A stretch of DNA of 64,000 nt from Minisyncoccota bacterium (GCA_028716825.1 JAQUPA010000001.1:13071-77070), one strand, 5' to 3'. Shown: positions 5,289 to 50,276, counted from the first letter of the stretch. The notes: generated by a model not told the origin, from the letters alone. Translations and numbers: made by a program.

Positions 5289-5298
5289 GGAGGTGTAT

Positions 5299-5328
5299 GA
5301 GGCGACGAAAGTCGCCTCATTGCTTTTT
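5299..5328 (+). terminator. rho-independent terminator
   Basis: Perfect hairpin GAGGCGACGAAAGTCGCCTC followed by ATTGCTTTTT. Confidence 0.8.
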
Positions 5329-5352
5329 AATAAAGAAGTAGGTATTAAAAAT

Positions 5353-6348: not shown

Positions 6349-6352
6349 TATT

Positions 6353-9388: not shown

Positions 9389-9400
9389 GTTTTAATTCTT

Positions 9401-11685: not shown

Positions 11686-11688
11686 GCT

Positions 11689-13524: not shown

Positions 13525-13531
13525 AAAAATA

Positions 13532-14125: not shown

Positions 14126-14136
14126 AATATTTAAAA

Positions 14137-14598: not shown

Positions 14599-15183
14599 TT
14601 ATTCTTTTTTGATTTTTTTACCAAGCGTTTCTCCCTCTGTTTTTGCTGATTCTAGTTCTTCCGAAAGTCCTTTTAAAATCTCGTTAATTTCATCTCGATC
14701 AGTTTTTTTCCTTACTTGTATTTTTTTTTCTTTTTTAACCTCCGGTGTATTTTCTATTTGGGAAGTTTTTTCTTCGGTAGATATCTTTAATGACGGGAAT
14801 TCTGTTTTTGCTCTCTCTTCGGCTTTTCCAATGATTGTGTCAATTGTGTCTTCCCCTGGTATTGTGGGTTCCCCTTCTGTTTTTGGATAAAGCATATCAA
14901 GACCCTCTTTGTAGTTTGAGAAAATCTGCGTTTCCATTTCTTTTGCAATATCTCGGCTTAACTCCTCGCTAAAACCAAATTCTTTTTTAATTTCTCCTGC
15001 CACTTTATTTTGCGACAAACTTCCATTTAGAACTTTTTCAAATATTGTATCGAGCTTATCTATGCCTTCGTCGCCTTCGCCCTTAATTTGGAACCGTCTT
15101 GCTATGTCGCAAACTTTCTCAAAATTTTTTCTATCTTTAAGAGCATTTTCTATGTTCTCTGGCAATTGATTTTCATCATCCAT
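14599..15183 (-). CDS. acidic/Lys-rich hypothetical protein
   Basis: 194 aa, highly charged, no TM helix. Confidence 0.4.
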   Translation of the reverse strand: MDDENQLPENIENALKDRKNFEKVCDIARRFQIKGEGDEGIDKLDTIFEKVLNGSLSQNKVAGEIKKEFGFSEELSRDIAKEMETQIFSNYKEGLDMLYPKTEGEPTIPGEDTIDTIIGKAEERAKTEFPSLKISTEEKTSQIENTPEVKKEKKIQVRKKTDRDEINEILKGLSEELESAKTEGETLGKKIKKE

Positions 15184-15228
15184 ATTTTTAATGAGTATTT
15201 TGGTAAAAAATTAAAAGTTTATGGGCTG

Positions 15229-23731: not shown

Positions 23732-23849
23732 AATTGAGAAGATTGACAGGAAAGAACTTTAAAAATTGAATTTACCCTATTAAATCCCGCAAAGCGGGAG
23801 CGACAAAGTCGCTATTCAATAGGGTAAGATAAGAATTTCTTTGGTGCGA

Positions 23850-26836
<2,987 letters not shown>

Positions 26837-26847
26837 AAGAAGTTCTT

Positions 26848-26913
26848 ATTTCGAGCGAAGCGAGAAAATGCTTCAGCTCCATTTCGAGCGAAGCGAGAAA
26901 ATGCTTCAGCTCC
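26848..26913 (+). repeat. perfect tandem duplication (2 x 33 bp ATTTCGAGCGAAGCGAGAAAATGCTTCAGCTCC) in the 23S-5S spacer
   Basis: Read directly from the sequence. Confidence 0.9.
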
Positions 26914-26944
26914 ATTTAACAAGGTAAATTTTGAGCTCATTATC

Positions 26945-27051
26945 TTGGTGATAATACTGGGCGGGCAATACCTCTTTCCATCCCGAACAGAGAAGTTAAG
27001 TCGTCCAAGGCCGATGATATTGCTTTTGCGAGAAAGTAGGTCGTCGCCAAG
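26945..27051 (+). rRNA. rrf: 5S ribosomal RNA
   Basis: CTTGGTGATAATACTGGGCGGG...CCATCCCGAACAGAGAAGTTAAG...GTCGTCGCCAAG, flanked by the processing-stem inverted repeat GAGCTCATTATC / GATAATGAGCTC. Confidence 0.85.
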
Positions 27052-27073
27052 ATAATGAGCTCAAAGAAGAAAA

Positions 27074-37101: not shown

Positions 37102-38148
37102 TTATTTTTTAGGTTTTATTATTTTTCTGTAGATTTTTTCATATCCATCTACCATTTTCTCAACAGTAAATTTTTCCTCAACCCACTTTCTACAATTTTC
37201 TCTTTTTATTGTATCAATTTTTTTTACTGCTTTCACTGCTTCTTTTACGTTTTTTACTACAAAACCAGTCTTTCCATTTTTTACAACTTCTCTTGCAGAG
37301 CCACGGTCAAAAACGATTACTGGCGTTCCACAAGCCATAGCCTCTGGCATTACAAGACCAAAAGGCTCTTCCCAGTTTATAGGTAGGATTAAAGCTTTTG
37401 CATTTTTTAAAAGTTTAACTTTTTCTGTATGGGCGATTTCTCCAATGAACTTTATTTTTCTTCCGTCAATCAATGGTTTTACTCCTTTTTTAAAGTATGG
37501 TTCATCAACAACATCTATTTTTGATGCCATCTTCATGGGAAGATTTGCTCCTTTCGCGATTTTTATCGCTTCAATCGCTCCCTTTTCTTCTGACATTCTG
37601 CCGAGAAAAGCTAAATAATTCCCGCCCTTTTTTGAGAAATCAAATTTTTTAACTTCAATGCCATTATAAACCGTGGCCACAAAGTTTAATTCTGGTAAAA
37701 ATTTTCTTTGAGCATTGCTTATTGAGACATAATTTAAGTGCTTTAATTCTTTATATGCAGGTTTTCTAGGTTTGTCGTTAATTGGTCCATGTAGAGTGCT
37801 TACGGTTGGTGTGTTAAGTAGTTCTGCTACACAAATGAACCTCCAATTAAGATGGCTATGAATAATGTCGGGTTTTAATTCTTTTATTTTTTTTATTGCT
37901 TTGTTTATGCCAACCCATTTCATTGTTTCTCTAAATCTTGAATCTCTGCTTAAAGGATATTTTCTCATGGCTTTCGGTAATACCGGTACTAGTTTAGCGC
38001 TTGTTTTAGAATCTCCCGACGCAAAAAGATAAACTTCGTGCCCTCTATTTATAAGTTCTTCTGTTATGCTATAGACAACACGTTCAACGCCTCCATATTT
38101 TTTTGCAGGAACGGGTTCTTCAAAGGCAGAAATTTGAACTATTTTCAT
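37102..38148 (-). CDS. glycosyltransferase family 4 (paralog)
   Basis: EPFGLVMPEAMACGTPVIV. About 45% identity to the neighbour. Confidence 0.8.
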   Translation of the reverse strand: MKIVQISAFEEPVPAKKYGGVERVVYSITEELINRGHEVYLFASGDSKTSAKLVPVLPKAMRKYPLSRDSRFRETMKWVGINKAIKKIKELKPDIIHSHLNWRFICVAELLNTPTVSTLHGPINDKPRKPAYKELKHLNYVSISNAQRKFLPELNFVATVYNGIEVKKFDFSKKGGNYLAFLGRMSEEKGAIEAIKIAKGANLPMKMASKIDVVDEPYFKKGVKPLIDGRKIKFIGEIAHTEKVKLLKNAKALILPINWEEPFGLVMPEAMACGTPVIVFDRGSAREVVKNGKTGFVVKNVKEAVKAVKKIDTIKRENCRKWVEEKFTVEKMVDGYEKIYRKIIKPKK

Positions 38149-38154
38149 TGAATT

Positions 38155-39441
38155 TTATATATACTTTTTATATTCGTCGCTAATTTTTTTTGCGATAAAA
38201 GGCCAAGAGTGATTTTTTGATACGTATTTATAGCCATTTTTAATGAGTTTTTCTTGGAGTCTTTTTGAAGAATATAGCATTTGGACTTTGTTTTTTATGT
38301 CAACGGGACTACGTGCTTTAAATAAAAGGCCTGTTTTTTTATGAGAAATTATTTCTTTTAATCCGCCAACGGCAGATACAATAACAGGTATTTTTGTTGC
38401 CATTCCTTCGAGTGCTACAAGACCGAACGGTTCATAGTAAGAGGGGACAATCAAAGCATCTGCGGCAGAATAAAAATTTCTTAATCTTCTGTGATTTATC
38501 ATACCGGTAAATTTAATGAGATTTTCAACTTTTTCTTTTTTTGCTTTCTCGAGTAATCTTTCATATTCTTTAAAATCTAAAACATTTTTTTCTTTGCCAT
38601 GTATTTTCCCTCCAACAATAACAATTTTAATATTTGGAATTTTCTTTTTTAGAAGTTTGGTTGCGGTTATTAAAGATCCAATTCCTTTACGCCACTCAAG
38701 TCGGCCAACGTACAAAAGTACAAAGTTTTTTTGGTCTATTCGTAAGCTCTCTCTCGCTTTTTCTTTTGAAAGTGGCTTAAATTTCTGAAGATTTACGCCC
38801 CCAGGGATAACTTTTACTTTTCCTGGAATGGAATCATAGATTTTAACCAGCGATTCTTTTTCGCTTTTTGCAAGACTTACGACTGCGTCAGCTCTCTCTA
38901 CCGTTTCTTTTTCTACGTCAAATCTTTTCTGAAAATAATCAGTTTCGTTTTTGTTCGTTAAATATTTCTTTTTTGTGGCTTGCCTGATTTTTCCTAAAGA
39001 ATGAAAGTTTTCAATAAGCGGTTTTGAAAATTGGCATTTTGCTTTTAACGCCATCCATGCTCCATCCCAGTAATGCCCATGGAAAACATCGTAGTTATCT
39101 TTAACTTCAATGAATTTCAAGAAATTTAAATAAACTTCTGGCAATATATTAAAAAGTTCGGTTTTTTGGACATAACTTTTCTTACCGCCTCTTAACCTAA
39201 CCACTCTTGCGTTTTTGTTGATTTGAGAAATATGTTTTTTATTTGTGGAGTCCCAACGAGTAAAGACATCTACTTTATGTCCTAATTTGCCGAGTTCTTC
39301 GGCTAAAGATCTTACGTAGATGTTTTGTCCTCCAGTTTCTTGAGAACCAAGATGTGCGAGGGGGTCGGAGTGTATGCTGAACATCGCTATTTTCAGAACG
39401 TTTTCCTTCCCGTTTTTAGTATTTTTTCCCATTTTAAGCAA
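38155..39441 (-). CDS. glycosyltransferase family 4, MshA/sucrose-phosphate-synthase-like
   Basis: GGQNIYV near the N-terminus and EPFGLVALEGMA near the C-terminus. Confidence 0.7.
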   Translation of the reverse strand: MLKMGKNTKNGKENVLKIAMFSIHSDPLAHLGSQETGGQNIYVRSLAEELGKLGHKVDVFTRWDSTNKKHISQINKNARVVRLRGGKKSYVQKTELFNILPEVYLNFLKFIEVKDNYDVFHGHYWDGAWMALKAKCQFSKPLIENFHSLGKIRQATKKKYLTNKNETDYFQKRFDVEKETVERADAVVSLAKSEKESLVKIYDSIPGKVKVIPGGVNLQKFKPLSKEKARESLRIDQKNFVLLYVGRLEWRKGIGSLITATKLLKKKIPNIKIVIVGGKIHGKEKNVLDFKEYERLLEKAKKEKVENLIKFTGMINHRRLRNFYSAADALIVPSYYEPFGLVALEGMATKIPVIVSAVGGLKEIISHKKTGLLFKARSPVDIKNKVQMLYSSKRLQEKLIKNGYKYVSKNHSWPFIAKKISDEYKKYI

Positions 39442-39602
39442 ATAAAAGAGAAATCCCTGGAAACATCCCAGAAATTAATCCAATCATCTATTTTATGTTA
39501 AATATTGGAAATTTTCAAGAATAAGCTTTTTGCTTGATTTTGAGCAATCATTGAAAAAAAACAAGAAATATGTTAAAAGGAAAAGGTAATTTTATAAAAA
39601 AC

Positions 39603-39788
39603 ATGAGGAAATGTGAAATTTGCGGGAAAACATATACTGTAAAAACCGTTCGAAAGAAATTAAGAGGTAAATATAATCCCACAAGCAAACAAAGGAAGTA
39701 TCCAAATTTACAATGGGTGCGTTTGCCATCTGGCAAGCGCGTCAAAGCTTGCACAAAGTGTATCAAGACCCTTTCAAAAACGAAATAG
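39603..39788 (+). CDS. rpmB: 50S ribosomal protein L28
   Basis: MRKCEICGK...NPTSKQRKYPNLQWVRL...ACTKCIKTL matches the L28 core (N.TKRRF.PNLQ). ATG 39603 is preferred over the upstream ATG 39570. Confidence 0.75.
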   Translation: MRKCEICGKTYTVKTVRKKLRGKYNPTSKQRKYPNLQWVRLPSGKRVKACTKCIKTLSKTK

Positions 39789-39802
39789 TTTCAATCAGAA
39801 GC

Positions 39803-39874
39803 CGGGGCATAGTATAATGGTTATTATGCAGGGCTGGGGGTCTTGTGACCTGGGTTCGATTCCCAGTGCCCCGA
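39803..39874 (+). tRNA. tRNA (probably Pro, anticodon GGG; anticodon arm weak)
   Basis: Acceptor CGGGGCA/TGCCCCG (7/7 paired), T-arm CTGGGTTCGATTCCCAG, D-loop AATGGTTA. The anticodon stem needs G-U pairs around the loop CTGGGGG. No CCA encoded. Confidence 0.55.
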
Positions 39875-39906
39875 AACAAAGGTCTTTTTAAAAACTTATA
39901 AGAACC

Positions 39907-40299
39907 ATGGAAGGACCATTTTCAAATTTAGACCAACCACCAAATGGACAAGAAAATAATGAAAAGAATTTAGAAGACCAGTTAAAGAAAACAAGCGAAG
40001 TATTAGAAAAAGCTGAGCAGCCAATGATTAATAGAAAACGTATGAATATTATAGGAGAACAAATACGTAAACTTGGCTTTTCAGATCAAAAGCAAAAAGA
40101 GATGATGCCGGTCTTGATAAAAAATGAAGAAATTATAAAGATGTGCGATGAAATTTTAGAATTAGAATCCAAAACTACTCCACAAGTAAATGCAGAAACC
40201 GATTTGACGACAAAGGAAGAGATAGAAATTAAAGAGGGACAGTTAAGATCAAAAATTGAGGAAGGATCTTTTGACGCTGAAGAAGAAAAAGCGGCTTAA
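39907..40299 (+). CDS. acidic hypothetical protein
   Basis: 130 aa, Glu/Lys-rich. A terminator-like hairpin follows at 40322-40349. Confidence 0.45.
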   Translation: MEGPFSNLDQPPNGQENNEKNLEDQLKKTSEVLEKAEQPMINRKRMNIIGEQIRKLGFSDQKQKEMMPVLIKNEEIIKMCDEILELESKTTPQVNAETDLTTKEEIEIKEGQLRSKIEEGSFDAEEEKAA

Positions 40300-40356
40300 T
40301 TGTTTAATAAATAAATTCGTAAAAGCGGGGCTTTACACTCCGCTTTTATATTAAAC

Positions 40357-40384
40357 TTGAAAAATAAAGAATTTATTGTATAAT
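40357..40384 (+). promoter_or_regulatory. sigma70-type promoter (TTGAAA, 16 nt, TATAAT)
   Basis: TTGAAA at 40357-40362 and TATAAT at 40379-40384. Confidence 0.5.
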
Positions 40385-40432
40385 AAAAGGGTTAGTCTAG
40401 TATATAACATAAAGAGTTTAGGAGGTGCGAAG

Positions 40433-40693
40433 GTGGATAAAAATAGAGCTAACCAATTGCGAAAAGCTGTGGATTCAGCGCTTAATGAAGTGCTGGAAGC
40501 AAAGACTGAGATAGATGAAGCCAAGGAAGAATGGCGAGAAATTGTATCTAGTCATTCAGTAAACAAAGCTGAGAAGATCATCGCAGAAAGGAATATTTTC
40601 CAAAGGGCTAAAGAAGCCCGGAGAAGACGAGACGAGGCCTGGAAAAAGTATTATAACTTATCCGATGAGTTAACCAGAATATTAAGGTCTTAA
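40433..40693 (+). CDS. small helical hypothetical protein (island gene A)
   Basis: GTG start 5 nt after TAGGAGGTG. GC about 45%. 86 aa, coiled-coil-like. Confidence 0.5.
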   Translation: MDKNRANQLRKAVDSALNEVLEAKTEIDEAKEEWREIVSSHSVNKAEKIIAERNIFQRAKEARRRRDEAWKKYYNLSDELTRILRS

Positions 40694-40712
40694 GGAACAG
40701 GGGGGGATAAGA

Positions 40713-40964
40713 TTGAATTTCGCAGATTCGTTGGATGAGAGGCTTTTTTGGAACGAAGAAGAGCGAAAGAGTGTCTTGCGAGAGATAGAACAACTTTCCA
40801 AAAAAGCAGACGAAACTTCTTCCGCCCGTCGCAAGAAAAAGATACTCACAAATATAGATGAGATGTGGAAGAAGAATTTCGATCTGTTCGACGAGTGGCT
40901 AAACATAGTTTCATGCCAAGCCGAAGAATTAGATAATGACGTAGAGCATCGAGAAAGGAGGTGA
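40713..40964 (+). CDS. small hypothetical protein (island gene B)
   Basis: TTG start after a GGGGGGG run. Its stop overlaps the RBS of gene C. Confidence 0.45.
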   Translation: MNFADSLDERLFWNEEERKSVLREIEQLSKKADETSSARRKKKILTNIDEMWKKNFDLFDEWLNIVSCQAEELDNDVEHRERR

Positions 40965-40969
40965 AAGAG

Positions 40970-41269
40970 ATGAAGCTTTCCATAGGACCTTTAAGTGTTT
41001 GGGTTTACAAAAAGATCTCTGCAGGGGGCAGAAGCGTGGTAACTGCGGAGCTCGAAAAAGATGACGGAACCGTTGTCATAGTTTCTCCCGATCTTTCAGG
41101 GCAGAAGGCCAACATAAGAGAGCTCTGCATTATACCAAATTTTCCTTCCTTCGAGGTCGCCTTCGAGGACGGTAATGTCTTACGTATATTCATCCAGGAT
41201 GACGAGATCATGGTCGTGGATTTACGTAGAGAGGTTACCAGAATTCCTTTTTACAAGAAGGAAACCTAG
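40970..41269 (+). CDS. small hypothetical protein (island gene C)
   Basis: ATG 5 nt after AAAGGAGGTG. 99 aa. Followed by a hairpin and T-run terminator at 41303-41329. Confidence 0.5.
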   Translation: MKLSIGPLSVWVYKKISAGGRSVVTAELEKDDGTVVIVSPDLSGQKANIRELCIIPNFPSFEVAFEDGNVLRIFIQDDEIMVVDLRREVTRIPFYKKET

Positions 41270-41476
41270 GTCAAGTAAGAAAAGATAAAGGAGGTGGTTC
41301 ATGCGGTCTGAAATACGGCCGCTTTTTTATTTCTGTTTTCAAATATATCTTAGCATCTTATTGACTTTTCAGGAAAATCATTTTATAAAATAAAGTAAGC
41401 ATTTTTAAATTAGTTCCTTAAAATTAAGGGATTTTTATATGTTTTGTAAGGTTGTTCGGAGAAGGGAAAAGAGAAG

Positions 41477-42118
41477 GTGGTGAAAATGAAAAAGTTTTGG
41501 ATTTATTTTGCAATTATAATGTCCGTCCTTTTGATAGGGGGTATTATAATAACTGCTGTTCTTGGCATTCTTGATGATATCTATGCTTGGGCTTGGGTGG
41601 GCCTTGTTATGTTGCTAATAGCAGTATTATTTATAGCGGCATACGGCGAATATATTATATCAGCCATCGGCCTTGTCGATTTGTACTTCTTCTTTGCAAT
41701 GATTTTCAACTTCCAATGGAAATACTTTCTGTATTTCTTAGCAACAAGTGCTATTCTTGTTCTTGTAGCTATTATATACGTATTTCTTAAAGAAATTGGA
41801 TTGGTTGATTTTGAAGAATTCTTTAGTTCCTCTGAAGGAAAAAGTTCTTCAGGGGGTTCTTCAGGGGGTTCTTCAGGAGATTCCTTTATAGGAAGCTCAA
41901 AGAGCAGGAAAGAAAAGGAATATTGCAGAAAGTGTGGAAGCTTTAACCATAGTACCTTTGCACATGGTAGTCATGCAGAAAAGTCTCCAAGCGAATGCAG
42001 GGAATGTGGAAGTCAATACCACATAACTTTGGATCACAAAGAGTGTGGAGTTTGTGAGAGTACAGAGCATGATACTTCAGAACATATACCATTCAGCGGT
42101 AAATTAGAAGGAGATTGA
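41477..42118 (+). CDS. membrane protein with C-terminal triple Cys/His repeat (zinc-ribbon-like)
   Basis: Four to five TM helices, an SSGGSSGGSSG linker, then three repeats CRKCGSFNHSTFAH / CRECGSQYHITLDH / CGVCESTEHDTSEH. ATG 41486 is the likelier start. Confidence 0.55.
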   Translation: MVKMKKFWIYFAIIMSVLLIGGIIITAVLGILDDIYAWAWVGLVMLLIAVLFIAAYGEYIISAIGLVDLYFFFAMIFNFQWKYFLYFLATSAILVLVAIIYVFLKEIGLVDFEEFFSSSEGKSSSGGSSGGSSGDSFIGSSKSRKEKEYCRKCGSFNHSTFAHGSHAEKSPSECRECGSQYHITLDHKECGVCESTEHDTSEHIPFSGKLEGD

Positions 42119-42150
42119 GTCCCTTATGGGCCAAGAGACAATATTAAAAC

Positions 42151-42186
42151 GCGGGAAGTCTAAGGATTTCCCGCCTGTTTTATTTT
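42151..42186 (+). terminator. rho-independent terminator
   Basis: GCGGGAAGTCTAAGGATTTCCCGC hairpin followed by CTGTTTTATTTT. Confidence 0.7.
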
Positions 42187-42246
42187 CAAATATAAAAACA
42201 AGATTATTTATTCCTGAAAGATTTTCGAGATTTGATTTTTTCCGCC

Positions 42247-42275
42247 TTGTAAAGGGAAGTTTTTTATGTTATACT
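42247..42275 (+). promoter_or_regulatory. sigma70-type promoter (TTGTAA, 17 nt, TATACT with extended TG)
   Basis: TTGTAA at 42247-42252 and TATACT at 42270-42275. Confidence 0.5.
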
Positions 42276-42362
42276 GTCTTTGGTTTGAGTTAACTCTCGT
42301 GTTTCTTATTTAAAGTTATCTTTAAATTTTGTACTCCGAGGGGATCAAACGGGGTCGATTAG

Positions 42363-42414
42363 TCCTTTGAAACAGCGGTTTTTTACCGCTCCTGCTTGGC
42401 AGGGTTTCAAAGGA
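42363..42414 (+). promoter_or_regulatory. three-way-junction RNA structure in the 5' UTR of the RRM protein gene
   Basis: P1 TCCTTTGAAAC/GTTTCAAAGGA (11 bp) encloses P2 AGCGG-TTTTTT-ACCGCT and P3 CCTGC-TTG-GCAGG. Confidence 0.5.
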
Positions 42415-42456
42415 TAAATGCCTGTTATTAAACAGGATAAAATTTAGAGAAAACGT

Positions 42457-42723
42457 ATGGAAGAAGCAAAAAACAAGCTCTACGTTGGAAACTTGGCATA
42501 TGAAATCAACGATGAAAAGCTGAAAGAAATTTTTTCAGCTGCCGGTGAAGTAACAGAAGCCGTTGTTATCATGGACAAGATTTCCGGACGTTCAAAGGGT
42601 TTTGGCTTTGTTACAATGAAAGATGACGCTGCAGCTGAAAAAGCTATTGAGCAGCTAAACGAAACAGACCTCGAAGGAAGGAAAATCATTGTTAACGTTG
42701 CAAGACCAATGCGCGAAAGATAA
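42457..42723 (+). CDS. RRM-domain RNA-binding protein
   Basis: RNP-2 LYVGNL and RNP-1 KGFGFVTM. Confidence 0.85.
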   Translation: MEEAKNKLYVGNLAYEINDEKLKEIFSAAGEVTEAVVIMDKISGRSKGFGFVTMKDDAAAEKAIEQLNETDLEGRKIIVNVARPMRER

Positions 42724-42744
42724 AATTGATTATCTTAGCAGAAA

Positions 42745-42772
42745 AAGCGGATCTTATTGATCCGCTTTTTTA
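42745..42772 (+). terminator. rho-independent terminator
   Basis: AAGCGGATCTTATTGATCCGCTT hairpin followed by TTTTT. Confidence 0.8.
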
Positions 42773-43025
42773 TTGTTTTTCTATAACTTGGTTGAAGGAG
42801 AAGAGTAATGGGAGGAAGAGGGTCGGCTTTAAAAGACCGTTTTCCCCGAAAGTGTTCCTGTAAACGGAATTACACTTCCGAGAGCTCTCTATTTTATCAA
42901 TTGAGTTTATTCTTGAATAAAATCGGAATTTATTGTATACATCAGAATTAACCTATTTAGCACATAGTGCCAAAAGAGGTTTAAAATATATAAAAAAAGG
43001 AGGAAGTTGAGTTAAAGGAGGGGAG

Positions 43026-43817
43026 GTGATTTGCTTGTCATTTAACGATAACCACAAACTGGAGCTTGAAAACGATGAGGACTTGGTAAAGCTGGCTCAG
43101 CAAGGAAACGAAGAAGCCCAGCGAGTCTTGTTAGAGCGTTATAAATACATAGCAAGCACGAAAGCAAGTTTGTATTTTCTTCCCGGAGGAGATCAAGACG
43201 ATTTATTCCAGGAAGGGATGATTGGCCTTTTTAAGGCAATTCGCGGTTATCAAGAGGGGCGCGATTCTTCTTTTAAGAGCTTTGCTTTTTTGTGCGTTTC
43301 TCGAAGTATAGTCACAGCACTAATACTAGCAAATCGCCGGAAGCACAAAGCTCTTGATGGTTATTCCTCTTTAGATAAATACGTTAGCCCAGATGGGGAA
43401 GAAGGCAATAACCATTTGCCGGCCAGCTACTTGGAAGATCCAGAAGAGATTTTTATCAACAATATAGAAAGAGAGGAGATGGAGGTCTTCTTACGAGAGA
43501 AGTTGTCACCCTTTGAATTTGCGGTAGTTCAGCTATTTATTCAAGGATTTTCTTACAGGGAAATAGCCAAAAAGCTGGGCATATCCGAAAAGCAGGTTGA
43601 CAATGCTCTCTGTAGAGCGAGGGTTAAGACCAAGCGGTATGCAGAATACATGGACACAAAGGATAAAAAAAAGGAGGTGTTAAAGGTGCCAATTAGCGGA
43701 TACACCATCTTTATGAAAGAGCAGTACAGAAAAGGACTAACAATGGATCAAGCTCTTGAGGCCTATAGAGAGCTATCACCGGAGAAGAAGGAAGTGTTGT
43801 CAAACGAAGCAAAGTAG
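43026..43817 (+). CDS. sigma-70 family sigma factor, SigH (Spo0H)-like, with a ~60 aa C-terminal extension
   Basis: Region 2 DLFQEGMIGLFKAIRGY...SFKSFAFLCVSRSIVTAL and region 4 SYREIAKKLGISEKQVDNALCRARVK, co-linear with Bacillus SigH. GTG 43026 or TTG 43035 start after AGGAGGGGAGGTG. Confidence 0.75.
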   Translation: MICLSFNDNHKLELENDEDLVKLAQQGNEEAQRVLLERYKYIASTKASLYFLPGGDQDDLFQEGMIGLFKAIRGYQEGRDSSFKSFAFLCVSRSIVTALILANRRKHKALDGYSSLDKYVSPDGEEGNNHLPASYLEDPEEIFINNIEREEMEVFLREKLSPFEFAVVQLFIQGFSYREIAKKLGISEKQVDNALCRARVKTKRYAEYMDTKDKKKEVLKVPISGYTIFMKEQYRKGLTMDQALEAYRELSPEKKEVLSNEAK

Positions 43818-43871
43818 ATAAGGGACTCTAATAAGGTTTTTCCTGAAGCTGAAAGAGGAGGTTCAGAACCG

Positions 43872-43988
43872 GTGATACCAGCGTCTCTGGAGGGAGTCTT
43901 CAAATCATTGAAGGTTTTCCTCGAAGAGGAGCTCGAGAGTACCAGGCGCAAGGAGGCAATCCTTACAGGATTGATCGACCTACTTTAG
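43872..43988 (+). CDS. possible 38-aa small ORF
   Basis: GAGGAGG sits 10 nt before GTG. Followed by the terminator at 44012-44039 (GCGGG-A-GTC-GCAA-GAC-C-CCCGC then TTTTT). Weak. Confidence 0.2.
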   Translation: MIPASLEGVFKSLKVFLEEELESTRRKEAILTGLIDLL

Positions 43989-44286
43989 ACATACACAATC
44001 GCAACATGTGGGCGGGAGTCGCAAGACCCCCGCTTTTTCTATTTAAATTAGCAGTCTAAACACTTGACTGCTAAATTTATTTTTTTATAATTAAGTATAT
44101 TTAGTAATTAAACAATTAAAAAATCCTGCATGTAATCTTGATTGCTGGATTTTTAAGAAACCGTTTTTTCTTTAAGTTATCTCTTTTTAAAAGACAACCC
44201 TTAAACAACCTACGCTTTCCGAAAACCAGCAATAAAACGGCTGGTTTTTTTACAAAAGGCCGAATTTTTAAACTATTTCAAAATTT

Positions 44287-44517
44287 ATGATCAAGAAAAA
44301 TTTTCACAGCGTTCCTCAGGGTGATGCTTGGGCAATAAAAAAAGAGGGTGTTGATAGGCCGGTTTCAAAACACAGAACACAGGCCATTGCAGAAGAAAAA
44401 ACTCGTGTTCTTGCTAGAAGGGTTGAAGTAGAAGCAATCTATCATAACAAACAGGGGATTATTAAAGGCAGAGATAGTTATGGAAATGATCCATGTCCAC
44501 CAAAAGACAAAAATTAA
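44287..44517 (+). CDS. DUF2188-family small protein
   Basis: HSVPQGDAWAIKKEG...RDSYGNDPCPPKDK matches the DUF2188 pattern (HVVP..GW.VK.EG ... DSYGNDP.PP). Confidence 0.6.
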   Translation: MIKKNFHSVPQGDAWAIKKEGVDRPVSKHRTQAIAEEKTRVLARRVEVEAIYHNKQGIIKGRDSYGNDPCPPKDKN

Positions 44518-44550
44518 AGGTCACAATATAAACTAACTAAAAATCAAAAT

Positions 44551-44730
44551 ATGGATTTTAATAAGTTTCTTAGTGAAATAAGAAAGAAAGATGGGGAAGA
44601 AACTGCTCGGAGAGCAAATACTCTTGTTAATTTTGAAACCTTAAAAGAGTTGCTTATCCGGAAAGAAATTATTTCAGAAGGAGAATTTAGAAAAGTCAGA
44701 GAAGAAGTTTGTGAAAGGTATAAAAAGTAG
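44551..44730 (+). CDS. 59-aa hypothetical protein (preferred over the antisense ORF 44544-44792)
   Basis: Co-directional with its neighbours. Charged helical peptide MDFNKFLSEIRKKDGEETARRAN... Confidence 0.3.
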   Translation: MDFNKFLSEIRKKDGEETARRANTLVNFETLKELLIRKEIISEGEFRKVREEVCERYKK

Positions 44731-44757
44731 ACAAGATCAAGGATAAAAAACTTAGGC

Positions 44758-45441
44758 ATGAAATGTTTATTTATTGATGAGACAGAATGCAAACAAAGAG
44801 ATCCTAATTTTTTCGGAGTCGGTGGACTTTTTGTTGACTCCTTTTTCTATAAAACCCTAAAAAGATCTTTTAAATCTTGTTTTGAGAGTTTGGGGTGGGA
44901 TGAGAAAAAGGAGCTTAAAGGAAGCTATCTATTTTCTTCACGGAAAGGAGATAAAAATGTGCCGGTGGATAAAAGAATTAAGCTTGTAAGGGAAATTGTT
45001 GATTGTACAAGAGCGAAACAGCGATCACGAATTAATTTTTATTTTACAAGCAACGGGAAAAAGAGAAGTGAAAAAAATTATTTATTCTTATTAAAGAAAA
45101 TAATTAAATCACTTAAAAATTATCCTGATAAAAACGATAAAAATTTAGTAATTATAACAATACATCAGTGTTCTGAATTTAAAGAAAAGAATATCAAAAA
45201 AATAATTAATGAAAATTTGAAGGCAAGACTAGTTTTATTTGAAAAACCCTTTATAATCCACTCAGAAAACGAAGCATGCGGTATGATTATTGTCGATATT
45301 TTAAACTACCTAAAAATGTGGATTGTCCTTAATCCCGAGGAGAAAAGTCAATTAAAATTATTTCCGAGTGTTAACCAAAAAAAATTAGCACAAGTTACAG
45401 AAATATTAGCAACAATTAAAAACATCAAAGATGTAAAATAG
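44758..45441 (+). CDS. hypothetical protein with a DUF3800-like N-terminus
   Basis: N-terminal MKCLFIDETE (the hhhDESG-like start typical of DUF3800). 227 aa. Confidence 0.4.
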   Translation: MKCLFIDETECKQRDPNFFGVGGLFVDSFFYKTLKRSFKSCFESLGWDEKKELKGSYLFSSRKGDKNVPVDKRIKLVREIVDCTRAKQRSRINFYFTSNGKKRSEKNYLFLLKKIIKSLKNYPDKNDKNLVIITIHQCSEFKEKNIKKIINENLKARLVLFEKPFIIHSENEACGMIIVDILNYLKMWIVLNPEEKSQLKLFPSVNQKKLAQVTEILATIKNIKDVK

Positions 45442-45467
45442 GAAATCTAATTTATAAATAAAAATTT

Positions 45468-46091
45468 ATGTCAAAAAATAAAGTAGATAATCCAATAGTA
45501 AAAGTAGACTACGAAGAAGCTAAAAAACTTGCAGATTTAGGTGCTATTGTTCAAGATTTAAGTTTTGTAATGAAAACGTGTTCGCGTCTTGAGAGACTAT
45601 TAAAAGAAAAATCCAAAGACAGTTTGTTAATCGAAAATATGTGGACTGCTGTATTAATAAGATATGCTAGATGTTTCGCAGACGGGAAAAGATTTGGTTT
45701 GTCAGAATCAATATTTGACAATTTAAATGGTGAGCCACATAAAGCGCACAAATTTTATCTTGATTTGAGAGACAAACATATTGCTCATTCTGTAAATCCA
45801 TTTGAGCAAGTGGCGGTAGGACTAATATTGTCTCCGCAGAACATTGAAAGTAAGAAGATAATTAAGGTTGTAACAATGACTATGAGGCATATGATAACAG
45901 ACATTGAGGGAGTTCATCAGCTTGGATGTTTAGCAAAGGTTTTATTAGAGGAAGCATGCAACATAGCCAAGCAATACGAAAAAGAGATATTAAAGAAAGC
46001 TAAAAGTATTCCTATTGATGGTTTATACAATTATCCCAGACTTCGTATGATTGCGCCTGGGCCTGAATCGGCAGATAAACCAAGGTCATAG
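45468..46091 (+). CDS. hypothetical protein
   Basis: 207 aa, no recognisable motif. Adjacent to the DUF3800-like gene. Confidence 0.4.
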   Translation: MSKNKVDNPIVKVDYEEAKKLADLGAIVQDLSFVMKTCSRLERLLKEKSKDSLLIENMWTAVLIRYARCFADGKRFGLSESIFDNLNGEPHKAHKFYLDLRDKHIAHSVNPFEQVAVGLILSPQNIESKKIIKVVTMTMRHMITDIEGVHQLGCLAKVLLEEACNIAKQYEKEILKKAKSIPIDGLYNYPRLRMIAPGPESADKPRS

Positions 46092-46134
46092 TGCAAAAAA
46101 CTAGAAAATTTATTTAATTAAGGAGTAAAAATTT

Positions 46135-46539
46135 ATGAATCAAGATGATTATAATGCAAGAAAAAGAAAAGAAGAATTATTTCATTTATTTAAAGAATCG
46201 GTATTAGGTCGTTTGAATTTCTCAATAATTGTTAGTACATTGTCAGCAACCTTGCTTATAGTTGCAACTTTTAACAAAGAGTTAATTCCGGTTAATGATT
46301 TTACAAAAACTCTTCTTACAATTTTATTATTGCTTATACCGAGTGGATTATTTCTATATCTTTATGAATTAAATCAGACTGGTGTTGATTCAGCAAAAGC
46401 CTTGAAAAAAGAAATTAATGAAGATTTGAAGCAAAGAAAAAAGAATATATTTCTTTGGTTTAGCGTCTATTTTCCGTGGATCGGCCTTGCCATTATATCG
46501 TTTGTTATTTTCTCAATAATTTGGATAATTTGGCGATAG
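46135..46539 (+). CDS. small membrane protein (3 TM helices)
   Basis: Hydrophobicity pattern. RBS AAGGAG before the ATG. Confidence 0.45.
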   Translation: MNQDDYNARKRKEELFHLFKESVLGRLNFSIIVSTLSATLLIVATFNKELIPVNDFTKTLLTILLLLIPSGLFLYLYELNQTGVDSAKALKKEINEDLKQRKKNIFLWFSVYFPWIGLAIISFVIFSIIWIIWR

Positions 46540-46686
46540 GTAAAGGCAAGGATTGCTGAAAATTGAAAAAATAAAATTAGACAGCCAATTTACAAATTTT
46601 TGTTTAAATATTTCCGCGATTTTGTTAGAATGAGTGGGTTAGGAGAATGATGAATCATGAATCACGAATAAAGCGAAAATAAATCT

Positions 46687-46917
46687 ATGAGAAGACAAAA
46701 AATTGGTATTATAATGATTGTTATAGGAGTATTGGGATATATTTATAATCCTTTAATGGATGCCGGGAGTAACTGTGTTCTTGATGGTGGTTGTGGTTTT
46801 GGTTCGGCTATGCCAAGAATACCTTATTTTTTAATTCCGATTTTCTTGATTATTTTAATCATCGGGATTATTCTTGCCGTCATTAAAGAGAAAAACCATG
46901 GCAAAAATGAAAACTAA
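46687..46917 (+). CDS. small membrane protein (2 TM helices) with a GGCGFG motif
   Basis: Hydrophobicity pattern. Confidence 0.4.
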   Translation: MRRQKIGIIMIVIGVLGYIYNPLMDAGSNCVLDGGCGFGSAMPRIPYFLIPIFLIILIIGIILAVIKEKNHGKNEN

Positions 46918-47302
46918 ACTCATTGCGCCGTGCGGGATGAATTGCAATATTTGTATGGCATATTTGCGAGAAAAAAATAAATGCCTTGGCTGTAGATATA
47001 TTACCCCAAAAAATTCTATTTCCCGCGTAAAGTGCAGGATTAAAAATTGCAAAAAGCTTAAAGAGACAAGCTCTGGCTTTTGTTTTTTGTGCAAAGATTT
47101 TCCCTGCAAGAGAATAAAGCATTTGGATAAAAGATACAGAACAAAATACAATATGAGCGAGATTGAAAACCTTTTATATATTAAAAAATTTGGAGTAAGA
47201 AAATTTATACAAAAAGAAAAGAAAAAATGGACCTGCAAAAAATGCGGTGGTACAATCTGTTGTCATAGAGGAGTATGCTTTAGCTGTGGTTCTAAGAAAT
47301 AA
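46898..47302 (+). CDS. Cys-rich DUF3795-like protein
   Basis: MAKMKTKLIAPCGMNCNICMAYLREKNKCLGCR...CRIKNC...CFLCKDFPCKR...CKKCGGTICCHRGVCFSCG. The CG.NC..C.AY...C.GC pattern is typical of DUF3795. Confidence 0.5.
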   Translation: MAKMKTKLIAPCGMNCNICMAYLREKNKCLGCRYITPKNSISRVKCRIKNCKKLKETSSGFCFLCKDFPCKRIKHLDKRYRTKYNMSEIENLLYIKKFGVRKFIQKEKKKWTCKKCGGTICCHRGVCFSCGSKK

Positions 47303-47407
47303 CTTTTTTAATACGAATTTTTATTTGACAATCTTAGGTTTTTTTGTTAATAATATATATAGCGATTTTGGGAAATTCCCAAAATCTTTTTATTTAAGGA
47401 GGCAAAG

Positions 47408-47641
47408 ATGGATAGGTATTTCTATACTTTCCGTTACCAGACAATTCCCAGCTGTAAAGATTTTCACCTGTCTGATATTTCTGTCAGAAGTATAAGGGCG
47501 GAAAACGAAGAAGCAGCAATCCAAAGGGCCAAGAAAATGGTCAAGGCCCAGGAAAGAAAGCTGAATAGCGGGTGTAAAATCTTTGAGTGCGATCTTATAC
47601 TGGTCGCCAAAGAGGTCTGGAGAAATCCAGATAATATCTAA
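47408..47641 (+). CDS. small hypothetical protein (high-GC)
   Basis: RBS AAGGAGG before the ATG. Followed by a terminator at 47667-47686 (CCCT-GCAA-AGGG then TTTTTT). Confidence 0.45.
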   Translation: MDRYFYTFRYQTIPSCKDFHLSDISVRSIRAENEEAAIQRAKKMVKAQERKLNSGCKIFECDLILVAKEVWRNPDNI

Positions 47642-47848
47642 TAAGGAGGTGAGCTCATCATTGAAAAACCCTGCAAAGGGTTTTTTCAATATAAATTACT
47701 TTTCTTTATTTTATAGAAAGAAATTGACAGAAGATTATTTTGTGCTATATTCTAAAATCCAAACAATGTTCTTTGATTTTGGTCTTTAAGTGGACCTTTA
47801 TATATTTCCCGTAAAGCCGTAGAAGAATAAGATATTTAGGAGGTTAAA

Positions 47849-49225
47849 ATGAGATCAAGAGACATTTTTGACAGTCTTTCGCCGATTGACTATCGATACT
47901 GGGACGAGGAAGTGGCGAGGTATCTCTCCGAGAATGGGTTCACCACTTACAAACTTCTAGTAGAGCTTGCGCTTGCAAAGGTGCTTCATCGTCAAGGTAT
48001 CTGCTCAAAAGCCGCTGTCCAAGAAATCGAGTCGGCTTGTAGTAAGGTGAGGACCGCTGAGGTGTATGACGAAGAAGATCGAATTCGTCACGACATCCGT
48101 GCCCTCGTAAACTGTATCCGCGCCAAGGTGAGCGAGAAAACGAAGCCATACGTTCATATGACGGCAACCTCGTATGACATCGTTGATTCAGCAAACGCTG
48201 TTCGTTACCAGGAGGTCGTTAAGGACGTACTTCTTCCAACACTCATGAACTTGGAAGAGGTTCTCATCGCGATTGCACTTCGCGAAGCCGAGACAGTACA
48301 GGTTGGTAGGACGCACGGCCAGCATGCAGTTCCGATTACTTTCGGATTCGCGATCGCCGGCTATGTGAGTCGCCTGGGCGGGTCAATTGAGAAGTTGAAA
48401 AAGCTTTCTTCTGAGCTTCCTGGGAAGTTCTCGGGAGCAGTCGGAGCATATAATGCTTCGTCGCTTTTCTTCGATGACCCCGAGGACTTTGAGGCCAAAG
48501 TGCTCGCCGAGTTAGACCTTAAGCCAGCTGGGCACTCAACGCAGATTGTGCCACCCGAACCTCTGACTCGGCTTTTCTGCGAAGTTACGATCGCGGCAGG
48601 AGTACTGGCCAACTTGGCCGATGATATGCGGCATCTCCAGCGGACGGAGATCGGAGAGGTGGGTGAGGAGTTTGAAGCGGCGCAGGTTGGATCTTCCACC
48701 ATGCCGCAGAAACGCAATCCCATCAACTTCGAGAACGTTAAGAGCTTATGGGAGATTGTTATGCCCCGCATCGTGACGGTGTTTATGGATCAGATCAGTG
48801 AGCATCAGCGCGACCTTACCAACTCTGCGTCTGCACGGACTTATGGCGAGGTTATCACCTACGTGGTTTCAATGGCAAAGCGCCTGACGCGCACGATGAA
48901 AAAGCTTACAGTTGATCGTGCTAACCTGGAGCGAAACCTTGCCATACAGGAAGGGTTGGTGGTTGCAGAGCCTCTCTATATCATCCTTGCAGCGTTGGGA
49001 CATCCTGATGCCCATGAGAAAGTGAGGATACTCACACTGCAGGCTCAAAGCGAGAAACGGCCGCTCCAAGAGGTTTTTGCCGATGACACAGAGATGAAAG
49101 TGTATCTTGAGAAGATGACGCCATATCAACGGCAGATCCTTTCAGATCCGTCTCTCTACATCGGCATTGCTGCAAAGAAAGCAAGAGATGTCGCAGAACA
49201 TTGGAAGCAAAGGTTAGGAGGTTGA
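47849..49225 (+). CDS. purB: adenylosuccinate lyase
   Basis: 458 aa, fumarate-lyase superfamily (GSSTMPQKRNP). GC about 52%, far above the background. RBS TAGGAGG. Confidence 0.85.
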   Translation: MRSRDIFDSLSPIDYRYWDEEVARYLSENGFTTYKLLVELALAKVLHRQGICSKAAVQEIESACSKVRTAEVYDEEDRIRHDIRALVNCIRAKVSEKTKPYVHMTATSYDIVDSANAVRYQEVVKDVLLPTLMNLEEVLIAIALREAETVQVGRTHGQHAVPITFGFAIAGYVSRLGGSIEKLKKLSSELPGKFSGAVGAYNASSLFFDDPEDFEAKVLAELDLKPAGHSTQIVPPEPLTRLFCEVTIAAGVLANLADDMRHLQRTEIGEVGEEFEAAQVGSSTMPQKRNPINFENVKSLWEIVMPRIVTVFMDQISEHQRDLTNSASARTYGEVITYVVSMAKRLTRTMKKLTVDRANLERNLAIQEGLVVAEPLYIILAALGHPDAHEKVRILTLQAQSEKRPLQEVFADDTEMKVYLEKMTPYQRQILSDPSLYIGIAAKKARDVAEHWKQRLGG

Positions 49226-49247
49226 ACTTCGAGGTATTTATGCCCGT

Positions 49248-49280
49248 GGGCGCTACTGTCAATTCAGTGGCGCCCTTTTC
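49248..49280. terminator. hairpin terminator between the convergent purB and porB genes
   Basis: GGGCGCTACTG...CAGTGGCGCCC followed by TTTTC. Confidence 0.6.
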
Positions 49281-49307
49281 ATTTAAGAAAATTTCTCTTT
49301 ATGAGTT

Positions 49308-50276
49308 TTATTTTTTTTCTTCAAGCTTTAATAGTCTCTTCCATTCTTTATTTACGATTTTTTGGAGTTCTTCTATTTTTTCAGGATAATCTTTCAAGTG
49401 AGCAAATCTTTTTTGCTGGTTTATAAATTCTTTAATTGGTTTTTCTTTTGCTGGTTTTATATTTACTATATATTTTCCATTTTCAACTTCATATAAAGGC
49501 CAGAAGTTTGTTTCTGTTGCAAGTTTTGAAATTTCAAGCGTTTTTGCGGGTGGGAATCCCCAGATTGTTGTGCAGGGGGCAAGTATAATTAATGCTGTTG
49601 GCCCTTTGGTCTCAATTGCTTTTTTTGCTTTTTTCTTTAAATCCTCAAGGTCATGGATTGCGGCCTGCGCAACATAAGGGCTTCTGTGTGCGACCAAGAT
49701 TTCTGTTAAATTTTTTCTTTGTTCTTCTTTGCCCTTTTTTACTTTTCCGGCTGGCGTTGTAGTTGTGTCAGCCCCCAGGGGGGTGGCCCCTGATCTTTGC
49801 CCGCCAGTATTTTGGTACCCTTCGTTATCATAAACTACCAAGGTAAAATCATGGCCCCGTTCAAATGCTCCCGAGATTGCCTGAAAGCCAATATCATATG
49901 CGCCCCCATCCCCGGCAAAAGCAACAAACTTTATTTTCTCTTCAAAGCCATTTTTCTTTCTGTATTTAAAAGCACTTTCAACACCTGCAATAGTTGAGGC
50001 AACATTTTCAAAGGCGTTATGTATGCAGGGGATATTCCAGGCATTATATGGATATATGGTTGAGGTAACTTCAAGGCACCCTGTTGCGACGCCAGCGACA
50101 ATGGGTTTTTCTGTTTGGGATAAAACATTATTTACAATTAAAGGGATTGCGCATCCCGCACAAGTTCTTCCTCCTGGTGAATATTTTGGATTATTCTTTT
50201 TTACTTCAGCCATGTTATTAGTTATTTGTTTTATGCTATTAGTTTTTTTACTTGATCCATTTGATTTTGTTATCAA
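49308..50276 (-). CDS. porB: 2-oxoacid:ferredoxin oxidoreductase beta subunit (TPP-binding)
   Basis: GDGG TPP motif (FAGDGGAYDIGF) and Cys ligands for the 4Fe-4S cluster. Confidence 0.8.
   Translation of the reverse strand: MITKSNGSSKKTNSIKQITNNMAEVKKNNPKYSPGGRTCAGCAIPLIVNNVLSQTEKPIVAGVATGCLEVTSTIYPYNAWNIPCIHNAFENVASTIAGVESAFKYRKKNGFEEKIKFVAFAGDGGAYDIGFQAISGAFERGHDFTLVVYDNEGYQNTGGQRSGATPLGADTTTTPAGKVKKGKEEQRKNLTEILVAHRSPYVAQAAIHDLEDLKKKAKKAIETKGPTALIILAPCTTIWGFPPAKTLEISKLATETNFWPLYEVENGKYIVNIKPAKEKPIKEFINQQKRFAHLKDYPEKIEELQKIVNKEWKRLLKLEEKK

Follow-up and report, generated by a model that had tools for sequence, protein, structure and literature searches.

A SigH-type sigma factor of probable foreign origin, with a candidate HMG-box-like tail, in a conserved transcription block of Paceibacteria

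Within a 64,000-nucleotide stretch of DNA from a Minisyncoccota bacterium (GCA_028716825.1, JAQUPA010000001.1:13071-77070; called the window here, with positions counted from its first letter), the segment 40357-44040 encodes a sigma factor of the SigH type and, in an operon of their own, three small genes without known relatives outside a narrow clade. The sigma protein is deposited in NCBI as MDD5551596.1 with the label 'sigma-70 family RNA polymerase sigma factor' and nothing more specific, and the metagenome-assembled genome that hosts it, on a contig of 84,474 bp, is named 'Candidatus Pacebacteria bacterium' (Paceibacterota), in agreement with the candidate phyla radiation (CPR) host that had been proposed in the original prediction, a reading of the sequence alone. 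CPR bacteria have tiny regulatory repertoires, and how they switch gene expression is little understood. We compared the segment across four lineages, namely the window and the assemblies L001 (Logan SRR27370448), L002 (SRR28640815) and L003 (SRR22315506), to which L117 (ENA ERZ27247346) adds a near-identical strain of the window (98.0% identity, with differences at 28 of 1489 positions). We regard it as probable that a transcription block was gained here by horizontal transfer and has since been inherited vertically in a narrow clade of Paceibacteria. The sigma factor itself carries a C-terminal tail for which we consider an HMG-box-like fold quite likely.

Layout and composition of the block

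The block consists of two conserved transcription units that lie between gene A, which sits beside the tRNA-Pro gene, and the pyruvate:ferredoxin oxidoreductase (POR) genes (Table 1). Its minimal conserved form comprises gene A as a neighbour, an operon of the three genes B, C and D (40433-41269), and the sigma gene with its own promoter-like site, leader and terminator. The promoter-like sites of the two units have the 14-mer GAATTTATTGTATA in common, and both these sites and the sigma leader show stronger conservation than the coding sequence does. The motif ATTGTATA stands at the promoters of the operon, of the sigma gene and of a lipoprotein gene at 4.8 kb; since it fits ordinary sigma-70-type promoters, it defines no regulon.

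This arrangement bears directly on the earlier idea of a regulatory module in which the sigma gene is co-transcribed with three small genes, one of them possibly encoding an anti-sigma factor. Each unit has a promoter-like site and a terminator of its own, and thus the sigma gene is predicted not to be co-transcribed with B, C and D. The products of these genes, and of a membrane protein gene in the same span, match no anti-sigma family and come from separate transcription units. The membrane protein, with its zinc-knuckle motifs, was considered as an anti-sigma candidate in its own right and was rejected because its gene is missing from L001, L002 and L003. The GNRA tetraloops that had been ascribed to the terminators are likewise found in one case alone (GCAA, 44012-44033), the other four terminators having loops of 4-8 nt, none of them GNRA.

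For the proteins encoded by B, C and D there is no match in Pfam, NCBIfam, PHROGs or PADLOC, and among PDB sequences they reach chance level only. For gene D the identity in L002 and L003 is 80%, a level that holds between lineages with sigma factors that are ~60% identical; its homologues number three, all within the clade, and it ends in an ordinary TAG stop at a conserved C-terminus. An AlphaFold2 (AF2) model of its product reached a pLDDT of 50 and is not usable. A perfect inverted repeat of 20 nt joins the coding sequence of gene D (41139-41158) to that of the RRM gene described below (42667-42686), where, on a rough estimate, very few such repeats would be expected by chance; as it is not kept in L001 or L117 it is probably fortuitous or recent, and probably without function.

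Between the operon and the sigma gene lie an insert of 884 bp and an RRM gene. The insert encodes the 210-residue membrane protein, for which four membrane helices are predicted and which also has a linker rich in Ser and Gly and three C-x2-C-[GE]-S-x2-H-x4-H knuckles; it finds no family match. The RRM protein is recognized clearly (RRM_1, E 8e-23; Rbp_regulator, 105.8 bits), and its gene is present in L001 and L117 and missing from L002 and L003. Judged by their presence and absence among the lineages, both genes are later, strain-variable inserts that stand outside the conserved block. The leader of the RRM gene (42276-42456) forms nested hairpins, in which for example 42358-42373 pairs with 42404-42419, has no match in Rfam, and may be autoregulatory.

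The segment is compositionally distinct, as had been claimed, with a GC content of 39.5% in 40357-44040 against 34.4% in the window minus rRNA. The value of about 45% that had been given for it is too high, however: stretches of 300 nt range from 32% to 45%, and the upper figure is reached solely at 41.0-41.3 kb. At third codon positions the GC content (GC3) is 0.37 in gene B, 0.46 in gene C, 0.51 in gene D and 0.44-0.50 in the sigma gene, compared with a mean of 0.27 for 60 other open reading frames (ORFs) of the window. These four genes have a GC3 of 0.37-0.54 across all four lineages, and the values for gene A and for the genes on the flanks (GT4, POR, acetyl-CoA synthetase, DegV) are 0.18-0.30, again in all lineages. 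Gene A, which adjoins gene B in L001, L002 and L003 too, has in the window a GC3 of 0.25 and no Shine-Dalgarno (SD) sequence. Both features change abruptly from gene A to gene B, at the point where the left border had originally been drawn.

The SD signal is the strongest of the original claims. The sequence AGGAGGTG occurs nine times in the window, where 1.1 copies are expected, and four of the nine lie within 40.4-43.7 kb. The best duplex with the anti-SD sequence has a mean energy of -12.4 kcal/mol at the seven starts of the island, compared with -2.8 kcal/mol (sd 3.5) for 54 genes outside it (Mann-Whitney p = 1.6e-4). The statement that nearly every gene here has a canonical ribosome-binding site is thus borne out by the strength of the island SDs, but not for the RRM gene, which lies within the span and has none; nor are the starts uniformly GTG or TTG, being a mixture of GTG, TTG, ATG, ATG, ATG and TTG. 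Most native genes have no recognisable SD, and this includes GroES/GroEL, whose GC3 is 0.23-0.27, so that the signals of the island are not due to high expression.

Outside the island, a strong SD and a high GC3 occur together in only two genes of the window, a lipoprotein gene (4938-5288) and an adenylosuccinate-lyase-like (purB-like) gene at 47849-49225, which has the domains Lyase_1 and ASL_C, 51% GC and a GC3 of 0.55. The purB-like gene is demonstrably a recent insertion. The stretch that holds it, 47707-49314, is missing from L001, which is elsewhere 96-99% identical, and it is the top tetranucleotide outlier of the window. Because this recent insert bears the same signature of SD and GC3, the signature is a credible marker of acquired genes here, and for foreign genes in this genome the two features discriminate more sharply than bulk GC or tetranucleotides. 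The lipoprotein gene (signal peptide plus Cys; 4938-5330 with its 3' end) has the SD GGGGAGGTG, a GC3 of 0.49 and a promoter with ATTGTATA. On its 3' side stands an orphan AGGAGGTG-T-ATG, the ATG of which lies within a terminator hairpin with a GAAA tetraloop (5297-5320), and this pattern of orphan SD, ATG and terminator is common to the end of the lipoprotein gene and the end of the B-C-D operon (41289-41322).

Table 1. Features of the block and its borders, in window coordinates
Feature	Position	Strand	Remarks
tRNA-Pro(GGG)	39803-39874		just upstream of the island
Gene A, 130 aa, acidic, no family	39907..40299	+	native composition; conserved left neighbour, left island edge
B-C-D promoter-like site, sigma-70-type, TTGAAA-16-TATAAT	40357..40384	+	11 of 12 consensus positions; kept in L001, L002 and L003
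Gene B, 86 aa, predicted coiled-coil	40433..40693	+	GTG start after AGGAGGTG; ~75% identical in L003
Gene C, 83 aa, helical	40713..40964	+	TTG start after G-rich SD; shorter in L002 and L003
Gene D, 99 aa, predicted all-beta	40970..41269	+	ATG start after AGGAGGTG; most conserved gene of the block
Orphan AGGAGGTG and ATG running into the intrinsic terminator of B-C-D	41289..41322	+	
Strain-specific insert, 884 bp, with own promoter-like site and terminator	41333..42216	+	not in L001 (94-99% identical elsewhere), L002 or L003
Membrane protein gene, 210 aa	41486-42118	+	within the strain-specific insert; GC3 0.31
RRM unit: promoter-like site, ~180-nt leader, gene (42457-42723), terminator	42247..42771	+	
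Sigma promoter-like site (TTGAAT-17-TATACA) and 5' leader	42913..43034	+	leader holds the palindrome GCACATAGTGC
SigH-family sigma gene	43035..43817	+	TTG 43035 has the best SD spacing; PGAP start GTG 43026; ends at in-frame TAG
Sigma region 2	~43182-43322	+	
Sigma region 4	~43497-43628	+	
Internal AAGGAGGTG, 6 nt, GTG 43686, HMG-box-like domain (PISGYTIFMKEQ...KKEVLSNEAK)	43672..43814	+	
TAG stop	43815..43817	+	aligns with GAG in L001 and GAA in L002
In-frame continuation of the ancestral 320-aa form: variable linker and conserved amphipathic C-terminal helix	43818..43988	+	
38-aa ORF with own SD and GTG start	43872-43988	+	
Intrinsic terminator, GCAA tetraloop	44012..44038 (hairpin 44012-44033)	+	right island edge; homologous to the terminator 3' of the tail-less sigma gene of L003

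The SigH-type sigma factor and its C-terminal tail

The assignment of the sigma factor to the SigH type, made originally from motifs that are indeed present, is upheld by profile searches. The five best matches in NCBIfam are all SigH models, with NF006148 at the top (173.2 bits, E 4.5e-51), and the alignment to this model is co-linear, running from residue 10 to 210 of the protein and from position 13 to 215 of the 218 in the model. The next model from outside the SigH group is the generic superfamily TIGR02937, at 80.7 bits. In Pfam, Sigma70_r2 covers residues 53-99 and Sigma70_r4_2 residues 158-201; the Sigma70_r3 model gives solely a chance-level match (0.056) inside region 4, and regions 1.1 and 3 are absent. 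Among PDB sequences it matches best to 3mzy (E 7e-25), an entry under the name 'RNA polymerase sigma-H factor', and annotated sigH genes of Bacillus (plasmid and chromosomal), Priestia, Peribacillus and Monoglobus show 40-45% identity. Membership in the extracytoplasmic function (ECF) group was considered and rejected, as Sigma70_ECF covers the helix-turn-helix (HTH) of region 4 only, with 22.8 bits, and the SigH models score more than 90 bits above any ECF model. A match to CARF3, from the scans of PHROGs and PADLOC, is confined to the same HTH and is not meaningful.

With SigH/Spo0H of Firmicutes (TIGR02859 and NF006145-NF006148, including the SigH/ComX-type competence sigmas of non-sporulating Firmicutes) the protein shares the architecture of regions 2 and 4, co-linearity over the full model length, 40-47% identity to annotated SigH proteins and 3mzy as the closest structure. 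It differs from them in its CPR host, which is without sporulation machinery, in the C-terminal extension (~110 aa in the relatives), in the three linked orphan small genes, and in its genomic context between tRNA-Pro/gene A and the POR genes, where the sigH gene of B. subtilis adjoins rpmG-secE-nusG. It also scores below every SigH equivalog cutoff (173.2 against 208 for NF006148, 164.2 against 294.8 for TIGR02859), and so is a divergent member of the family and not an orthologue by NCBI criteria. There is also no sign of Bacillus-type SigH promoters in the window: the B. subtilis consensus (RNAGGAWWW, 11-12 nt, RNNGAATWW) is matched once where 1.37 matches are expected, although the specificity of the divergent sigma factor may differ. 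A partial match to this consensus over the sigma promoter is not kept in L002 and L003, and autoregulation through a Bacillus-type promoter was accordingly dropped as a candidate.

The leader of the sigma gene (42946-43034) is almost invariant in all four lineages, and this includes L003, whose sigma protein is 59-61% identical. The palindrome GCACATAGTGC lies in this leader just downstream of the -10 element. The predicted RNA fold of the leader is no better than that of shuffled sequence (z-score 0.17), which makes a protein operator the more likely explanation of the conserved leader and its palindrome.

An extension beyond region 4 had been noted from the beginning, with a length of about 60 aa. 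The extension exists, but its length in the window is the result of truncation, as relatives read on past the position of the stop. Among the sigma proteins of the relatives (labelled P0002, P0003 and P0004), P0002 and P0003 have 320 aa and a tail of ~110 aa. The product in the window has 263 aa, with regions 2 and 4 and the HMG-box-like part intact; a G-to-T change (GAG to TAG) cuts linker and helix off in this genome. The identical TAG is found in L117, an independent ENA assembly, and hence is a real allele. Past the TAG the frame stays open for 56 codons, up to 43988, with one amino-acid difference relative to L001. In L003 the sigma factor is tail-less: it ends in AAGGAGGTAA, and the homologous terminator follows ~50 nt later. 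A Priestia plasmid match that seemed to extend into the tail proved spurious, the alignment overrunning the annotated stop into non-coding DNA.

One could take these observations to mean that the sigma gene, at least in this genome, is becoming a non-functional pseudogene. The TAG stands where relatives carry Glu, and in the sigma core the window and L001 differ by 12 non-synonymous and 8 synonymous codons; so many non-synonymous changes, along with the TAG, could mean relaxed constraint, a point against the reading that we prefer. Between the same two genomes the flanks and genes A-D are 98.6-98.9% identical and the RRM-sigma segment only 93.9%, an uneven divergence that may stem from recombination with a more distant allele or from a sigma gene that evolves faster. 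We nevertheless consider decay quite unlikely. The TAG removes the linker and terminal helix only and leaves regions 2 and 4 and the HMG box intact, the same TAG is kept in a strain that has diverged by 2%, the frame downstream is open with its single change relative to L001, promoter and leader are almost invariant, and the L003 sigma factor, which lacks the whole tail, indicates that a tail-less form can be maintained. In a comparison of the tails of L001 and L002, the HMG part differs by 8 non-synonymous and 6 synonymous codons and the C-terminal helix by 7 of each; because non-synonymous sites are about three times as frequent as synonymous ones, these numbers, which are raw counts and not a computed dN/dS, suggest purifying selection.

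Inside the sigma gene there is a further translation signal. A perfect AAGGAGGTG stands 6 nt ahead of codon 221, which reads GTG in L001 as in the window, and ATG in L002. The conservation of this internal SD and start suggests either that the tail is also translated separately or that it derives from a once separate gene downstream.

As sequence and predicted structure indicate, region 4 is followed directly, in three of the four lineages, by a short HMG-box-like domain, and then by a linker that is flexible and a helix that is amphipathic. In the AF2 model the tail folds into three helices (pLDDT 84-89), beyond which come a disordered linker and a long helix of amphipathic character. When this model was compared with the PDB by Foldseek, about 30 of the top 35 structures were HMG boxes (SOX2, SRY, UBF, LEF1, TFAM box B), with an rmsd of 2.8 A over 60 columns for TFAM box B. 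A full HMMER scan of 1.84 billion representative proteins with a profile of the tail picked up, apart from P0003, five proteins (E 4e-9 to 8e-5; labelled P0138-P0142), each with three to five matched tandem repeats of ~45 aa (KRPxSGYQxYVSEVMKNGxKMGEAAxxWKxL...YKxKA). On this profile evidence the repeats are the closest relatives of the tail domain. A joint profile of tails and repeats matches TFAM box B (E 7.5e-7), NHP6A (2.5e-3) and HMGB3 (5.6e-3), and the tail compared directly with TFAM box B shows 36% identity over 45 columns (E 1.8e-4).

Of the repeat proteins, P0138 passes the Pfam cutoffs of both HMG_box_2 (40.9 vs 22.4) and HMG_box (27.8 vs 25.4), P0139 passes that of HMG_box_2 (29.7), and the remaining three stay under the Pfam HMG cutoffs. 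In four of the five proteins the repeats come after the C-terminal repeat of a topoisomerase IA of the bacterial type, a repeat not seen in P0138. The contigs with informative neighbours, those of P0138 and P0141, hold eukaryotic genes such as Aph-1 and protein kinase; more generally the loci of these proteins (L116, L119, L120) resemble eukaryotic contigs, with Aph-1 on two of them and, on one of these two, a kinase gene as well.

Taken together with the sequence signature P-x-S-x-Y-x-x-[FY]-x-x-E ... [WY]-[KR]-x-L-x-x-x-x-[KQ] ... K-A, which the tail shares with HMG boxes, as it does the predicted three-helix fold and the matches by profile and structure, these results make it quite likely that residues 221-263 form a short HMG-box-like domain. 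It departs from known HMG boxes in being ~6-8 residues shorter between helices 1 and 2, in having Tyr where the core Trp stands, in remaining below the Pfam threshold by itself, and in being bacterial and fused to a sigma factor. Several results lower our confidence in the assignment: the AF2 model of the tail was built on 3 sequences, each of the Foldseek E-values is non-significant (0.6-4), the tail of P0003 scores 18.4 bits in Pfam HMG_box (E 0.0029) where the cutoff is 25.4, the tails of the window and of P0002 match neither PF00505 nor PF09011, and the tail alone finds nothing above chance among PDB sequences.

HMG boxes are viewed as essentially eukaryotic DNA-bending modules, and TFAM works just upstream of the promoter through DNA bending. 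By its family membership the sigma factor would bind core RNA polymerase via regions 2 and 4 and steer it to a promoter set of its own. With region 4 placed on the -35 element, the DNA just upstream would come within reach of the HMG box, which may touch and bend AT-rich sequence there in a way akin to the C-terminal domain of the alpha subunit (alpha-CTD) on the UP element, or to TFAM at mitochondrial promoters. The terminal helix, which is lost here to the TAG, would then serve as a regulatory or oligomerisation element, and the HMG part may in addition be translated alone from the internal SD and its GTG or ATG, perhaps having once been a separate downstream gene.

Compact sigma factors of regions 2 and 4 with an extra domain right after region 4, and with no separate anti-sigma factor, have a counterpart in the ECF groups ECF41, ECF42 and ECF56, whose members have fused C-terminal regulatory domains (PMC3426412, PMC8999054). 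The domains fused in those groups are regulatory ones of the SnoaL-like, TPR or a similar kind, whereas here a predicted DNA-binding-type HMG box plus helix is attached to a sigma factor outside the ECF group. The literature that was searched held no report of a fusion between an HMG box and a sigma factor, and nothing relevant on SigH in CPR. A bolder reading, which we offer tentatively and think possible rather than probable, is that this is the first sigma factor with a eukaryote-type HMG box, its tail functional and bending upstream promoter DNA in the manner of TFAM, available also as a free small protein, and derived from a eukaryote; the last element of this reading follows from the nearest relatives of the domain being HMG repeats on eukaryotic organellar-type topoisomerase IA.

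Distribution and origin of the block

Out of 5.8 billion protein clusters, only four group with this sigma factor: its own cluster, with members that are 99-100% identical and include an ENA and a Logan contig, and those of P0002 (94%), P0003 (89%) and P0004 (61%). No other match exceeds 47% identity. Further members of the clade did not turn up in the GTDB species representatives, in JGI metagenomes or in IMG/VR, where the best matches show 41-46% identity and come from Actinomycetes, Clostridia and gut Firmicutes. Homologues of the same composition widespread in related CPR genomes, named at the outset as one of two findings that would refute the claim, were not seen, just four related sequences emerging from the protein, GTDB, JGI and viral searches. 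In a neighbour-joining tree the four sigma factors are monophyletic on a long stem. The contigs of outside relatives that were examined (for two of the nearest and for GTDB and metagenome matches) have 48-73% GC and ordinary large-genome contexts, for example Ku/LigD or DnaK-GrpE-DnaJ. The description of the region as Firmicutes-like is too narrow, as SigH-like homologues are equally close in Actinomycetes and Armatimonadota.

The comparison of assemblies decides whether the block is real. A Firmicutes-like fragment joined into a CPR contig by mis-assembly or contamination had been offered as the alternative to acquisition, and the compositional shift is its sole support. However, L001 aligns with the window over 37883-41332 (98.9%) and 42217-44301 (93.9%) and is contiguous over both island borders, L002 aligns over 39982-41326 and 42912-44021 and then directly from 49189 onward (POR genes), and L003 likewise has the gene order A-B-C-D-sigma. 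Since the independent assemblies SRR27370448, SRR28640815, SRR22315506 and ERZ27247346 have the same junctions, mis-assembly is excluded, and a chimeric origin can be regarded as effectively refuted. The core of B, C, D and sigma stands at the same site in all four lineages and is not variably present among relatives, so on present alignments the block was already there in their common ancestor and has always occupied one site.

Given the high GC3, the strong SDs, the narrow distribution, and nearest outside relatives that are at most 47% identical and lie on non-CPR contigs of higher GC, ancient horizontal acquisition is the best reading of the block, as the original prediction had suggested. 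There are points that weigh against it. The tetranucleotide profile, proposed as a check, sides with the claim of an island in part only, as its segments rank 10th to 17th in distance among 114 and their deviation is just moderate. Genes B, C and D have no homologues beyond the clade, which leaves composition as the basis on which they are called foreign. No donor can be named, with the best outside identity at 47%, and direction and source are read from composition and distribution. Finally, the high GC3 persists down to ~60% sigma identity, which fits selection as well as incomplete amelioration.

The same observations lend some weight to vertical heritage, according to which a SigH-type sigma factor is an old trait of Terrabacteria or CPR that most CPR have lost and that is retained in this clade, with composition and SDs shaped by selection. 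SigH-like homologues extend across Firmicutes, Actinomycetes and Armatimonadota, with 3mzy as best PDB match, the four lineages all carry the block at a single site, its high GC3 is upheld in every lineage despite divergence, and no donor is closer than 47%. We consider this explanation unlikely, because neither the named relatives nor the GTDB scan include another CPR match, the step in GC3 and SD between genes A and B is abrupt, highly expressed native genes are without both features, and both features also mark the purB-like gene, the recent insert missing from L001.

A more specific version of foreign origin would make the block the cargo or remnant of a mobile element (plasmid, integrative and conjugative element or phage), with a sigma factor that once drove the genes of the element and is now stranded beside a tRNA gene. 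The position is suggestive, the block lying 30 nt downstream of tRNA-Pro plus one gene, with a hyper-variable stretch next to it (44.1-49.3 kb) and a type IV secretion system (T4SS)-like cluster at 5-17 kb. SigH paralogues are frequent on Firmicutes plasmids (57 records), which are a plausible vehicle for SigH transfer; they also occur in phage-labelled records, and there are matches to phage sigma families in PHROGs. Yet library scans of the window proteins found no integrase or recombinase and no structural phage genes, the 3' end of tRNA-Pro has no att-like repeat, IMG/VR gave no match, and the core block is fixed at one site in lineages down to ~60% sigma identity, so that we hold a mobile-element remnant to be rather unlikely. 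Horizontal acquisition of the block followed by vertical inheritance within the clade remains the explanation that we prefer.

Surroundings and implications

Some features of the rest of the window deserve mention. The variable stretch on the 3' side of the sigma terminator looks like a recombination or insertion hot-spot. In the window, its hyper-variable part (44100-47700) holds a DUF2188 gene and several orphans; the counterpart in L001 (5540-8475) holds a 212-aa gene, a DUF2130 gene and a 308-aa gene, and L002 has none, joining directly to the POR genes. The T4SS-like cluster (5353-17496, minus strand) encodes a T4SS pilin, a TrbL/VirB6-like protein, a TraG/VirB4-type ATPase and M23 and M15 peptidases. 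The rRNA and tRNA content of the window consists of 23S, 5S and three tRNA genes. No 16S gene is found upstream of the 23S and 5S genes (23845-27052), where tRNA-Lys, nusA and an inorganic pyrophosphatase gene lie instead, and the rRNA operon of this genome therefore appears to be split.

An acquired, lineage-specific alternative sigma factor that comes with conserved promoters, a conserved leader and partner genes offers an entry to regulation in CPR bacteria. If its tail is functional, the sigma factor would have a new way to read promoter architecture, and a eukaryote-like domain would have been recruited into the core transcription machinery of a bacterium. Should the bolder reading of the fusion be true, a symbiotic ultra-small bacterium would have built a new promoter-recognition device from two acquired parts, one bacterial and one eukaryotic.

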